Shown: positions 5,281 to 8,991 of the stretch, piece by piece | How the letters are laid out: each line of letters opens with the position of its first letter | Numbering within the stretch: position 1 is the stretch's first letter | Assembly (NCBI GenBank): GCA_963668175.1 | Contig: OY764159.1 | Location: forward strand, 64,001-128,000 | Direction: 5' to 3' | DNA: 64,000 bases | Source of the DNA: Syntrophales bacterium | Lineage (GTDB): Bacteria > Desulfobacterota > Syntrophia > Syntrophales > PHBD01 | The notes under the pieces: generated by a model | Told to the model about the DNA's origin: nothing | Databases searched by the model: none | The model's input: the letters and a program-made list of their open reading frames with translations, nothing else | Translations under genes and position numbers: made by a program

Positions 5281-6373
5281 GCTTCAGTCCCTCGATCGTT
5301 TCCCTTACGACAGGTTCCGGAACTCCACCATTGACAAAGGGCATGCCCATTTTCTTGAGGAGAACAAAATGTATATTCTCTCCCTGTTTCTTTTTGTCCA
5401 TCTTCAGCCGCGCCAAAATAGCGTCGGTTTTCACACCCGGATCTATTCGTTCGACGAGACCCATGTTCCGGATGAAAGAGGTAATTCTATCGGCATCTTC
5501 ATTGCTCAGATAGTTGAGGCGTTGCGATATTCTCGTGGCGGCCGCCATGCCCACGGAAACGGCGTCGCCGTGCGGAATCGCATAATCCGATTCCGCTTCG
5601 AGCGCATGGCCGACGGTGTGTCCGAAGTTGAGGATTCGCCGCAGTCCGGTCTCTTTTTCATCGATCTCCACGATGTTTTTCTTGATCCGGCAGCACGACG
5701 CAATGAGTCCTTCCAAAAAGGATAAATCCCTGTTTCTCAGCTTCTCCACGTTAGCTTCCATCAGGGTGGCGAGTTCCGGCGATTCGATGAGGGCGTACTT
5801 CACCATCTCCGCCAAGCCGTTCCGGAATTCCCGATCCGGCAATGTCCTGAGAAAGGCCGTATCGATGAAGACCGCCTTGGGTTGATGGAACGTGCCGATC
5901 AGGTTCTTCCCGGCGGCCGTGTCGACGCCGGTCTTGCCGCCGATGCAACTGTCTATCTGGGCAAGCAGGGTCGTGGGAAAGTGGATGCACGGTATGCCGC
6001 GCATATACAGGGATGCCATGAGTCCTGCGATATCCCCCGTAACGCCGCCGCCCAGAGCGACGAGCGCCGATGTCCTGTCGGCGCCGAGCGCCGCCAGTTT
6101 TTCGGCGATCTCCAGGCAGGTGGAAAATGATTTGGACTTCTCGCCGGCGGGAAAGTCGATCGTGTCAACCTTCAAATCCGATCTCTTCATCGTCTCACAG
6201 AGAAGGCCGCCGTGAAGGGCTGCCACATTTTCGTCGGCGATGACAAAATAGCGCTTGGCCCAGTTATTCTTGGCCATGATCAGCACCGAACGGTCCAAAA
6301 TATCCTCGCCGATATGGATATCGTACGAATTGATCTGCTTCCGGTCGAGATTGACTTTGAGTTTGTTCATCAT
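5273..6373 (-). CDS. aroB: 3-dehydroquinate synthase
   Basis: [49 protein letters not shown]. Confidence 0.96.
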
Positions 6374-7395
6374 TGCACCCTGATTTCCCTTTTCATAACC
6401 CCCTCTATGATCCTGACCTCGTCCATCATCTGGTAGAACTGTTCCGGCCGCAACGACTGAGGACCGTCGGACATGGCCTTTTCCGGCTCCGGATGGACTT
6501 CGACGATGATTCCATCGGCACCGACGGCGACGGCGGCTCTCGTTAAAGGAAGAACATACTTGGAATAGCCGGCGGCATGAGACGGATCGACGATGACCGG
6601 CAGATGGGTCAGTTCCTTCAGAACGGGAACCGCACTGATGTCGAGGGTGTTGCGCGTTGCCGTCTCGAATGTCCGGATTCCCCGTTCGCAGAGAATCACC
6701 TGCTCGTTGCCGGACGACAGGATATACTCGGCCGACATGAGAAGTTCCTCGATCGTTGTCATCAGTCCTCTTTTCAGGAGCACCGGCTTCTTGGCCTGCC
6801 CGACCTTCTTCAGCAGGGCGAAGTTCTGCACGTTCCGGGCGCCGATCTGGAGGATGTCCGCATAGGCTTCAACGAGGTCCACATCCGTCGTATTCATAAC
6901 CTCGGTGACGACAGGCATGCCCGTCGTCTCCCGGACTTTCTGCAGCAGTTTCAATCCGTCTTCGGCCATTCCCTGAAAACTGTAGGGAGACGTCCTCGGC
7001 TTGAAGGCACCGCCGCGAAGAACGTGGGCGCCCGCCTTCCGCGCGATGTAGGCGCATTCCATGAGCTGCTCGTCGCTCTCGATGGAGCAGGGACCGGCCA
7101 TGACGATGAAGTCCGGGCCGCCGATCTTCAGATCACCCACCTCAATGACGGTATTGCCCTCCTTGACCTCGCGGCTGGCAAGTTTATAGGGCTTGAGAAT
7201 CGGCATAACCTTCTCCACCCCTTCCAGGAATTCCGCCGCCTTCAGATGGGCCTTGCCTCGGTCGTCGCCGACGGCGCCGATGATGGTCCGCTCCACTCCC
7301 CTGGACATGTGGGGATTGTATCCGACCGACTCGATCCACCTTACAACGTTATCTATCTGGCCCTCCGTTGCATTTTTTTTCATTAAAACGATCAT
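6370..7395 (-). CDS. aroF: DAHP synthase, type I-beta, with N-terminal regulatory domain
   Basis: [47 protein letters not shown]. Start MIVLMK follows GGAGG/AGGAG. Confidence 0.95.
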
Positions 7396-7410
7396 GCTCC
7401 TGACCTCCCC

Positions 7411-7448
7411 AAATAAAAAGGCCGTGACGTTTTCTGCCGCCACGGCCT
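7411..7448 (-). terminator. Intrinsic terminator T2 of the aro leader
   Basis: Minus strand: AGGCCGUGGC-loop-GUCACGGCCU followed by UUUUAUUU. Confidence 0.8.
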
Positions 7449-7449
7449 C

Positions 7450-7495
7450 AAAATAAAAAAGCCGCGGGCAGTATCACTTTCGATCCACCCGCGGC
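7450..7495 (-). terminator. Intrinsic terminator T1 of the aro leader
   Basis: Minus strand: GCCGCGGGUGG...CUGCCCGCGGC followed by UUUUUUAUUUU. Confidence 0.85.
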
Positions 7496-7517
7496 CTATG
7501 TTCTTATGTTATCCTTT

Positions 7518-7622
7518 TCAGATCCTCCTGAACGCCGGGCAGACCGATGCGAAGCTATAATAATAGCTAAACCAGTAGCTAAAGTTAAAGCTTGTTAAAT
7601 CGATCTTTGCGTCCTGCGTCAT
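7518..7622 (-). CDS. Aromatic-rich attenuation leader peptide (34 aa)
   Basis: MTQDAKIDLTSFNFSYWFSYYYSFASVCPAFRRI*. 10 of 34 residues are F/Y/W. GAAGG lies upstream; terminators and aroF lie directly downstream. Confidence 0.88.
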   Translation of the reverse strand: MTQDAKIDLTSFNFSYWFSYYYSFASVCPAFRRI

Positions 7623-7842
7623 ACCATCGGCCTTCGTTAAAATTTTGTTAATGAGATCATAAGGCGGACAAATATGTCAAGGAAAAATTTTTCCGGCACA
7701 TGTCACCCGCGTTTTCTTTCATCTTTAACTATCCGTATTTTTAAGGAATTTATTTATTCAAATTTTCTAAGTCTACCCTCTTCAGCAATTAAAAGAAAAG
7801 TGCTTCTCTTTGCTCACGCTAATGTCGATCAGGCAAGGACCA

Positions 7843-8991
7843 TCACGCGGAGGGATAATGATTCCGGTCCTTGAGGACCAGGCCGAGGTATCGTTTATAA
7901 TCTGCGGTACCGGACATCAGGTCCAGGTAATATTTACAGTATTTGGCATTCGCTTTCATCTTGCGCATGGCAAAGAGCGACATCCTGCGGTGATAAAAGG
8001 CTTTTCTCAACCAGAAGGCCTGCCGGAAAAGGGGATAAATCCTGCTGCGGAGGGCCGTATGATAGGCTGAAAGCACATCCTTTTTCGAGAGTATGGCTTC
8101 CGCCGCCAATTTCCCGCTCAGCATGGCAAAATACATCCCTTCGCCGGTGATAGGCTCTACCAGACCCGCAGCATCTCCGGCAAGCAACACCTTTCCTTTT
8201 CCCGGTTGTTTCATAAAATTGTGGAACGGTATCGGGTAGCCGCTCACGCGCTCCGGCATATTGGCCTCGTTTTTCAGAAGACGACGAAGAAAGACTTGAA
8301 AGTGGTCTTTCATGTTTTTGCCGTTGGATCTCGTCAAACCGCCGAGGCCGACCGTCGCGAAAGCAGGCTTGGGAAATACCCATCCATAACCGGCGTTGAT
8401 GAAACCGAAATGGATTTGCGGATAGACACCGTCATGGTCAAAACATGTCAGATGCTCATAGGGAATGTCCGCTTCGATGCCGACGGCAAATTCAGCCCTC
8501 CTGACGCGGGGGGAAACGGCCCTGCGGACAACGCTGTAAGGGCCGTCCGCGCCGACTATGAAGTCCGCGGCCAATACATCTCCATTGTCCAGGACGACAC
8601 GATCCTGCGCGACCGCCTTGACTGCATGCCCGCATAAGATCGTACATCCGGAAGCCCGGGCTTTGTTGAGGAAATAGTGATCGAAGCTCGTCCTGTCGAC
8701 GGCGAAAAACCGTTCGGTCGGACCGGACCATTTGCATATCTTTCCCAGGTCTGCATGATAAATGCCGAAGGCGGAGGACTCCATGAGCACAAAGTCCTGC
8801 CGTGCGACGTCCCCGTATATTTCCTTTATCAGGGGTATCGCTTTTTCGGTCAGGAGCCCGCCGCACAATTTCTTGCGGGGGAAGATGGCTTTATCGACGA
8901 CCAGGACCTTCCGGCCGTTCGCCGCCAGGGTATGTGCCGCGGCGGCGCCGGCGCAGCTTCCGCCCACGATGACCACGTCATGCTTTTCCAT
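7843..8991 (-). CDS. Geranylgeranyl reductase family FAD-dependent oxidoreductase
   Basis: VVIVGGSCAGA, FPRKKLCGG, GADG, GYGWVFPK, GDAAGLVEPITGEGM. Confidence 0.85.
   Translation of the reverse strand: MEKHDVVIVGGSCAGAAAAHTLAANGRKVLVVDKAIFPRKKLCGGLLTEKAIPLIKEIYGDVARQDFVLMESSAFGIYHADLGKICKWSGPTERFFAVDRTSFDHYFLNKARASGCTILCGHAVKAVAQDRVVLDNGDVLAADFIVGADGPYSVVRRAVSPRVRRAEFAVGIEADIPYEHLTCFDHDGVYPQIHFGFINAGYGWVFPKPAFATVGLGGLTRSNGKNMKDHFQVFLRRLLKNEANMPERVSGYPIPFHNFMKQPGKGKVLLAGDAAGLVEPITGEGMYFAMLSGKLAAEAILSKKDVLSAYHTALRSRIYPLFRQAFWLRKAFYHRRMSLFAMRKMKANAKYCKYYLDLMSGTADYKRYLGLVLKDRNHYPSA

Follow-up and report, generated by a model that had tools for sequence, protein, structure and literature searches.

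A candidate leader-peptide attenuator with mixed Phe, Tyr and Trp codons and two terminators upstream of the aromatic supra-operon of a Syntrophales bacterium

The aromatic operon and its leader ORF

The window, which is the whole 64,000-nucleotide stretch of DNA analysed here, carries at its left end a series of minus-strand genes for aromatic amino acid biosynthesis. The first of these, aroF (6370..7395), encodes a DAHP synthase with an N-terminal extension 5' of the catalytic domain (NCBIfam NF006421, 516.7 bits, cut-off 335), and GGGGAGG (7404..7410, minus strand) reads as its Shine-Dalgarno (SD) sequence. The closest named records to the AroF protein are from Syntrophales, Syntrophus sp. 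and Thermodesulfobacteriota MAGs. NCBIfam models also identified aroB (6373-5273), pheA (CM-PDT, chorismate mutase/prephenate dehydratase; 5280-4198), aroD (4336-3506), aroE (3525-2710), aroA (2989-1451) and aroK (1447-896). The next gene, aroC (906-1), continues past the window's left end, and tyrA, the prephenate dehydrogenase gene, lies after it just beyond the window edge. Since the gene order is aroF-aroB-pheA-aroD-aroE-aroA-aroK-aroC-tyrA, all seven common steps and the Phe and Tyr branch enzymes sit behind the leader described below. An earlier, sequence-only reading of this DNA had placed the whole shikimate operon plus pheA here, with which our gene calls agree, and had omitted tyrA; the lineage it had guessed fits the records closest to AroF.

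Upstream of aroF, the minus strand contains a leader ORF of 34 codons plus stop (7518..7622; ATG 7622-7620, TGA 7520-7518) that encodes MTQDAKIDLTSFNFSYWFSYYYSFASVCPAFRRI. Re-reading the sequence returned this ORF exactly as it had been noted, and the same count of four Phe, four Tyr and one Trp in codons 12-24 (7551..7589, minus strand). The aromatic residues are F12, F14, F18, F24, Y16, Y20-22 and W17. With a background of 5.7% for F, Y and W together, taken from the operon's own proteins, the binomial probability of at least nine aromatic codons in 13 is 3.8e-9. A putative SD-like GAAGG (7631..7635, minus strand) precedes the ATG by 8 nt.

A putative -35 box of the leader promoter, TTGACA, was read at 7675..7680 (minus strand). 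The same hexamer is found 145-183 nt 5' of the leader stop codon in 27 of 30 related loci, while a 28th match (L022) is misplaced. If the conserved TTGACA is indeed a -35 box, transcription would start some 20-25 nt 5' of the leader ATG. No good or canonical -10 hexamer was found near the conserved TTGACA. Our promoter scan returned a single site, which lay inside the ORF and was at chance level, and it did not pick the TTGACA site. The minus-strand stretch 7675-7700 shows a T-rich tract followed by TTGACA that is kept in relatives, with a T(G/A)TG motif 12-13 nt further on.

Two terminators separate the leader from aroF

Two intrinsic terminators lie between the leader ORF and aroF. Terminator T1 (7459..7497, minus strand; U-tract 7460-7450) consists of segments 3 and 4 of the leader RNA and has a predicted energy of -26.3 kcal/mol. 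Terminator T2 (7418..7449, minus strand; U-tract 7419-7411) consists of segments 5 and 6, with 12 pairs of which eight are G-C, and a predicted energy of -21.8 kcal/mol. The earlier reading had described one terminator, 22 nt after the leader stop codon and followed by aroF. T1 and an aroF that begins at 7395 bear this out, with the trivial correction that the gap is 20-21 nt when the stem is counted from 7497 or 7496; T2 had been missed.

Both hairpins are preserved in the alignment of relatives. The T1 helix is paired in 94.9% of the alignment cells, with changes on both sides in five of its 12 pairs, and the T2 helix in 94.5%, with both-side changes in seven of 12. Taken jointly, 94.7% of the cells are paired, 12 of the 24 pairs changed on both sides, and none of 500 shuffles reached any of the five measures we used. 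The full leader also folds better than all of 200 shuffles (z -4.76). T2 is present in 28 of the 30 relatives. It is missing from L016 and L030, where T1 is the only terminator, and also from the distant loci L044 and L048. We also considered a mini-ORF that would start at the ATG inside the T1 CCATGG sequence found in many relatives, and rejected it: this genome, with CCGCGG in that place, does not have it.

Alternative helices in the leader RNA

Within the leader ORF lies a segment (GGUCUGCCC...) that is able to pair with the 5' arm of T1 and that had gone unnoticed in the sequence-only reading. This segment 2 (UCGGUCUGCCCGGCG; 7533..7547, minus strand) closely resembles the T1 3' arm and, judged by pairing, energy and shuffles, it would form the 5' half of an antiterminator. 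On its 5' side 3 nt separate it from the last aromatic codon, and on its 3' side 12 nt from the stop codon. The predicted antiterminator helix 2:3 has an energy of -22.0 kcal/mol in this genome, which was equalled by 3 of 100 shuffles. Over the 30 loci, 84.5% of the cells are paired across 14 pairs, the mean energy of helix 2:3 is -24.3 kcal/mol compared with -22.9 for T1, and comparison with shuffles of segment 2 gives a mean z of -3.6. Folding of the stretch 7547-7438 further suggested that segment 2 may pair with segment 5 while T1 stays intact between them.

Segment 2 coincides with the conserved VCP tail of the leader peptide, in which GGTCTGCCC retains its wobble bases across relatives. 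The wobble C of the Val codon GTC is kept in 28 of 30 loci and that of the Cys codon TGC in 29 of 30. In 10 loci, Pro is replaced by Leu (CCC to CTG) with G-U pairing preserved. On this pattern of substitutions, we read the tail as conserved at the level of nucleotides, that is, as RNA.

The best upstream partner of segment 2 is segment 1 (7599..7620, minus strand), which starts at the G of the start codon and gives a duplex of -16.2 kcal/mol. Helix 1:2 is weak in this genome, where 19 of 100 shuffles were equally good, and over the loci its energies are often no better than those of shuffles (0 to 57 of 100 equally good). Reading by eye, we counted about 20 of the 30 loci in which the partner overlaps an in-frame start codon (AUGGACAGA or AUGGGCAGA). 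This overlap would explain the MDR or MGR with which the leader peptides recurrently start. In the seven loci of one genus, the partner instead overlaps the SD region.

A further alternative helix, 4:5 (7438..7473, minus strand), pairs the T1 3' arm and U-tract with the 5' arm of T2 at -19.3 kcal/mol. Across the 30 loci, where the U-tract often takes part, 95.4% of the cells are paired over its eight pairs. In each of the 28 loci that have T2, the helix outperforms its composition-matched shuffles on average, and the two loci without T2 behave as negatives in this test. Covariation over helices 2:3 and 4:5 is thin, with both-side changes in three of 22 pairs; most of the five shuffle measures were not exceeded. 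If segment 2 takes the T1 5' arm and the freed T1 3' arm in turn takes the T2 5' arm, the two steps would make up a six-segment relay.

Conservation of the leader among relatives

An aroF orthologue was found in all 41 of the related genomes searched, and the leader was compared in the best 30 of these 41 loci. The genomes are related, so the counts given here overstate independence. Looking for a conserved F/Y/W-rich ORF in relatives had been proposed along with the first reading, and each of the 30 loci carries such a short ORF upstream of aroF, always with a (V/L)C(P/L) tail. The distance from the leader stop to aroF is 90-139 nt in 28 of the loci. It is longer in L006 and L007 (255 and 273 nt) because of about 140 extra bases after T2. 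These extra bases between T2 and aroF occur in one genus (L006:2511-2660, minus strand; L007:1330-1500, plus strand), and an Rfam scan of the two loci at the gathering threshold matched no family to them.

Over the 30 loci, 218 of the 420 codons in the 14 positions 5' of segment 2 are aromatic, against the 5.7% background; the L003 window in this count is mis-anchored by four codons. F and Y are present in all 30 loci, while W is present in 25 and absent from five. The synonyms TAT/TAC and TTT/TTC vary freely among loci, F, Y and W replace each other, and indels within the ORF are multiples of three (+3 in L021, -3 in L026). Such free synonymous variation, exchange among the three aromatic codons and indels in threes are what selection leaves behind when it acts on the class of codon and on the frame. 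The N-terminal part of the leader is not conserved, save where it overlaps segment 1.

A model for attenuation of the aromatic supra-operon

The leader very probably acts as a ribosome-mediated, leader-peptide transcription attenuator of the aromatic supra-operon from aroF to tyrA. It combines a short 5'-leader ORF that is equipped with an ATG and a putative SD-like GAAGG here and is found in 30 of 30 loci, a cluster of end-product codons (9 of 13 here), two intrinsic terminators between leader and first gene, both with covariation, and a putative antiterminator that shares a strand with a terminator and whose other strand, as judged by geometry and energetics, would be freed by a stall and covered once the ribosome has reached the stop codon. 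The central idea of the earlier reading, that stalling at the aromatic codons of one leader lifts termination, is thereby supported, with the conserved ORF and codon run, the antiterminator and the gene-matched codon runs of the sister leaders described below all pointing the same way. From the ORF, the two terminators, the complementarities and the conservation computed here, we infer leader translation, stalling, a kinetic folding order and the effective inputs among the three amino acids.

When Phe-, Tyr- and Trp-tRNA are charged, the ribosome would reach the stop codon and cover segment 2. T1 (3:4) and T2 (5:6) would then both fold and transcription would end 5' of aroF. If the leader is not translated, segment 1 would pair with segment 2, and T1 and T2 would fold as in the OFF state. 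In the ON state, the ribosome would stall on a hungry aromatic codon among codons 12-24 and segment 2 would stay free. It would take segment 3 once this has been made, so that T1 could not form; the freed segment 4 and the T1 U-tract would then pair with segment 5, so that T2 could not form either. With both terminators disarmed, RNA polymerase would continue into aroF.

When this genome's leader was folded at equilibrium, T1 and T2 formed for every ribosome position tried (W17, Y21, F24 and the stop codon), and this approach thus cannot separate the ON and OFF states. Since T1 wins at equilibrium even with segment 2 free (-26.3 compared with -22.0 kcal/mol for helix 2:3), antitermination must be kinetic. 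The switch in the Escherichia coli trp leader is likewise kinetic.

A family of leaders with exchanged codon runs

We built a covariance model, R1, from the leader region and searched two samples of 151 genomes with it, one from the order and one from the phylum. One or more matches were found in 146 genomes of the order sample and in 87 of the phylum sample, and many genomes had two to six matches. In the present genome, one match is a WWW leader (MIQVMSSIGSWWWRKSREGFVRC) with its own tandem terminators (L034:1501-1680, or G000:C1:59183-59361, minus strand), 4.6 kb left of position 1 of the window. It lies 5' of trpE (TIGR00564, 559.7 bits), which is followed by trpG, D, C, F, B and A. There are thus two separate leaders in the aromatic gene cluster.

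Another match is a Phe-only leader (seven Phe in 11 codons) with T1 and T2 (L032:1501-1681, or G000:C1:3384885-3385065, minus strand), located 5' of a periplasmic binding protein gene. The protein has a weak match to the branched-chain amino acid ABC type (51 bits) and the next ORF is ABC ATPase-like; this locus may be a Phe-controlled uptake system. At a third match (L033:1501-1691, or G000:C1:1960463-1960653, minus strand), seven Ala codons stand in a row within an ORF (MNVTGTIHFAAAAAAARALPPMAGDAFL); T1- and T2-like hairpins come next, and then an aminotransferase gene, whose best match is alanine transaminase (512 bits; the cut-off of 647 is not reached). This ORF is a candidate alanine-sensing leader, of which we know no earlier description.

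A separate scan of this genome for terminators preceded by small ORFs identified three more leaders. A WWW leader with a terminator (G000:C1:438277-438363, plus strand) lies 5' of iorA, which encodes indolepyruvate:ferredoxin oxidoreductase alpha (gene in L084; 629 bits, just short of the cut-off of 651). A route through indolepyruvate may therefore also be under the control of Trp supply. An Ile-rich leader (G000:C1:626061-626144, plus strand) precedes a citramalate synthase gene (in L085; 727 bits), and an Ile/Val-rich leader (G000:C1:761490-761570, minus strand) precedes ilvB, encoding the acetolactate synthase large subunit (in L086; 821 bits). Leader-peptide attenuation thus appears to be a general control of amino acid pathways in this genome.

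In five relatives, we parsed 22 of the 29 R1 matches; the partial-model matches L065, L067, L068, L070, L073, L075 and L077 were left out. F/Y/W leaders were found 5' of aroF and F-only leaders 5' of the binding protein gene in all five, and the WWW leader 5' of trpE in four. Val/Leu runs precede ilvB-like genes at three loci in two of the five genomes, and additional W leaders precede other genes. We also observed that an SD-like AGGAGG, formed by two AGG Arg codons, lies immediately 5' of the stop codon of the aroF leader (7521-7529, minus strand). GGAGG occurs close to the leader stop in 18 of the 30 relatives; in the Phe and Trp sister leaders, it is instead located immediately 5' of segment 2.

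Beyond the order, an F/Y/W leader was present in all seven loci examined. Four of these lie 5' of aroF-like genes. In the other three, which belong to other orders of the phylum, the leader and its terminator pair lie 5' of an ADH synthase gene instead of a DAHP synthase gene (L045:560-1655, L047:553-1649 and L051:676-1662, all minus strand). ADH synthase (2-amino-3,7-dideoxy-D-threo-hept-6-ulosonate synthase) is the non-homologous first enzyme of the alternative, archaeal-type dehydroquinate route. The codon run thus follows the pathway and not the gene family, which we regard as the strongest argument that the codons would be the sensor. In a crude scan across many phyla, 30 of 77 aroF homologues had an aromatic-rich ORF upstream, compared with seven on the reverse strand. 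Three of the original 80 loci (L097, L101 and L129) had been dropped for their short upstream flanks, and some of the 30 are false, with L112 and L130 being ordinary proteins.

Which amino acids may be sensed

The sequence-only reading had proposed that a shortage of any one of Phe, Tyr and Trp would be sensed. Trp is the weakest part of this proposal, being represented by a single codon that is absent in five of 30 relatives, in a genome whose trp operon has its own WWW leader. We judge the chances that Trp is an effective input to be about even. The competing explanation is an attenuator in which Phe, Tyr or both are the sole real inputs, with the trp operon's separate WWW leader seeing to Trp, and this is a real possibility to which we nevertheless do not incline. 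It would account for the imbalance between a single W codon and four codons each for F and Y, for the five relatives that do without W, and for the location of trpE behind its own leader 12 kb downstream, while the operon itself contains pheA and tyrA and no trp gene. Codons can also be silent: as described in a review (PMC11802643), Tyr availability is without effect on the Corynebacterium aroR leader, whose codons are F-Y-F, and codon presence therefore does not prove input. Against this explanation, W is kept in 25 of 30 loci and usually at one position (YWF or FWF), despite the rarity of UGG, which makes up 0.6% of codons for the operon's own proteins. Distant orthologues also keep one or two W codons. 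Moreover, a single hungry codon is enough to stall a ribosome.

A possible relay through two terminators

Whether T2 takes part in the response is a separate question. We lean slightly towards a six-segment relay, through helix 2:3 and then helix 4:5, operating at this locus. Summed energies make 2:3 plus T2 slightly more stable than 2:3 plus 4:5, so the relay depends on the order of folding. Alternatively, T2 stands outside any relay, as a constitutive back-up or as a terminator for another factor, and helix 4:5 reflects the CC(A/G)TGG core that is duplicated in T1 and T2. We consider this explanation rather unlikely. In its favour, T2 is a little more stable than helix 4:5 (means of -19.7 and -16.6 kcal/mol), the core is nearly palindromic and so offers cross-pairing for free, and covariation specific to 4:5 is minimal, with a both-side change in one of eight pairs. 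The relatives L016 and L030 and the distant loci L044 and L048 do without T2, and the relay would for that reason be an add-on and not essential.

However, a constitutive terminator would cut the ON and OFF transcripts alike, which leaves no reason for its retention in 28 of 30 orthologues. Helix 4:5 is also kept in paralogues whose T1 and T2 sequences differ. Among paralogues and distant orthologues with T2, it is stronger than the shuffle mean in 25 of 25, and at most 5 of 100 shuffles are equally good in 23 of 25. In the trp-type leaders L034, L074 and L076, helix 4:5 is even stronger than T2 (-19 to -24 compared with -17 to -18 kcal/mol) and reaches into the T1 U-tract, which pairs with an A-rich stretch.

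Combining the relay with the leader family leads to a wider proposal, which we hold with no more conviction for than against: a modular chassis with a double-terminator relay would be found phylum-wide, with the codon run alone being swapped (F/Y/W, F, W, V/L/I and possibly Ala) and the whole being re-attached to DAHP or ADH synthase genes, such that one sensing event would disarm both terminators.

Readings in which the codons are not the sensor

Two further explanations deny the codon run its role. The first is that the leader acts as a peptide, either a TnaC-like arrest peptide that senses a free amino acid in the ribosome tunnel or a small protein with an independent function. The C-terminal VCP.LRR motif does look conserved as protein, but it is the nucleotides of this tail that are conserved, wobble positions included, and Pro to Leu is tolerated where pairing is kept. 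The N-terminal part is not conserved apart from the overlap with segment 1, and the paralogues exchange their codon run according to the gene downstream. A peptide function is thus very improbable.

Less probable still is an untranslated element (a riboswitch, T-box or protein-binding leader) with an ORF by chance, for which nothing specific speaks beyond structured non-peptide leaders 5' of aroF being conceivable, and against which stand a frame that stays open and in phase at all 30 loci, where indels are multiples of three, a codon class that tracks the pathway, and the lack of any Rfam family at threshold. In the region 7300-7900, no match to T-box, Phe_leader (RF01859) or Trp_leader (RF00513) was found at E-values up to 10, and the permissive threshold gave chance-level matches only (SorY, trpB motif and suhB), all to the terminators. 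TRAP-like triplet repeats were considered and rejected: the UAG/AGC repeats are 12-13 nt apart and not 2-3 nt.

Relation to known attenuators

The attenuator proposed here resembles enterobacterial pheL-pheA and trpL-trpEDCBA in setting helix 3:4, and a putative helix 1:2, against 2:3, in its run of cognate codons, in its intrinsic terminator and in the predicted masking of segment 2 by a ribosome at the stop codon. Unlike pheL and trpL, which each serve one amino acid and a terminal pathway, it has mixed codons and precedes the common pathway. Segment 1 lies on the start codon, a second terminator follows, and neither RF01859 nor RF00513 matches. The his leader of E. coli and Salmonella has six segments, in which A:B, C:D and E:F compete with B:C and D:E, and its last hairpin alone is a terminator. 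Our leader shares with it the six-segment chain along which a change of partner at the front would spread to the last hairpin. Three hairpins and two bridging helices are predicted here on the basis of complementarity, and, unlike in the his leader, the middle hairpin 3:4 has a full U-tract and is a terminator too.

Multivalent leaders are known from the ilvGMEDA, ilvBN and thr attenuators of the branched-chain and Thr/Ile pathways in enterobacteria. As in the model proposed here, one leader mixes codons for several end products and any shortage relieves termination; their sequence family is unrelated. With these leaders known and aroR published, the premise of the earlier reading, one amino acid per known leader, is too restrictive.

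In Corynebacterium glutamicum, aroR encodes a Phe-Tyr-Phe leader peptide 5' of the aroF operon (Neshat et al. 2014, via the review PMC11802643), and according to the review this leader responds to Phe. The two loci share a mixed aromatic leader peptide 5' of a DAHP synthase operon, in which stalling raises transcription (PMC11802643), or would do so in the model for the locus studied here. Compared by description, aroR has three regulatory codons and no Trp, whereas the leader here has nine including Trp, and a second terminator is not mentioned in the passages of the review on aroR (PMC11802643). In Acholeplasma, the uORFC-13-1 motif is a predicted upstream ORF by a terminator 5' of aroF, and is proposed to read the speed of Phe incorporation (PMC8632094). 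It resembles our locus in this arrangement of predicted ORF and terminator; as far as its description goes, it is set apart as a Phe sensor from another lineage (PMC8632094). A mixed aromatic leader 5' of aroF is thus not new as an idea, given what the review reports of aroR.

Our search of the literature on delta-proteobacteria, Syntrophus and Desulfovibrio, with most subscription journals outside its scope, found no aromatic leader-peptide attenuation. In Rodionov 2004 (PMC545781), the terms 'aromatic', 'leader peptide', 'aroF' and 'aroG' do not occur. The best reading of the mechanism is classical attenuation, a textbook principle, extended by a relay. What is new is the phylum-wide sequence family, the proposed double-terminator relay, the use of one chassis for several amino acids and its association with two unrelated first enzymes.

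Implications for aromatic amino acid control

The model proposed here offers a concrete and testable view of aromatic amino acid control in syntrophic anaerobes, which grow slowly and are hard to culture. Control would be layered, with an F/Y/W leader acting on the common, Phe and Tyr steps and a separate WWW leader on the Trp branch. The leaders define an RNA family without an Rfam entry, from which annotation would gain. If the relay is true, two terminators would provide a simple natural route to a very low OFF level from one sensor, which would be of interest for attenuation research and synthetic biology.
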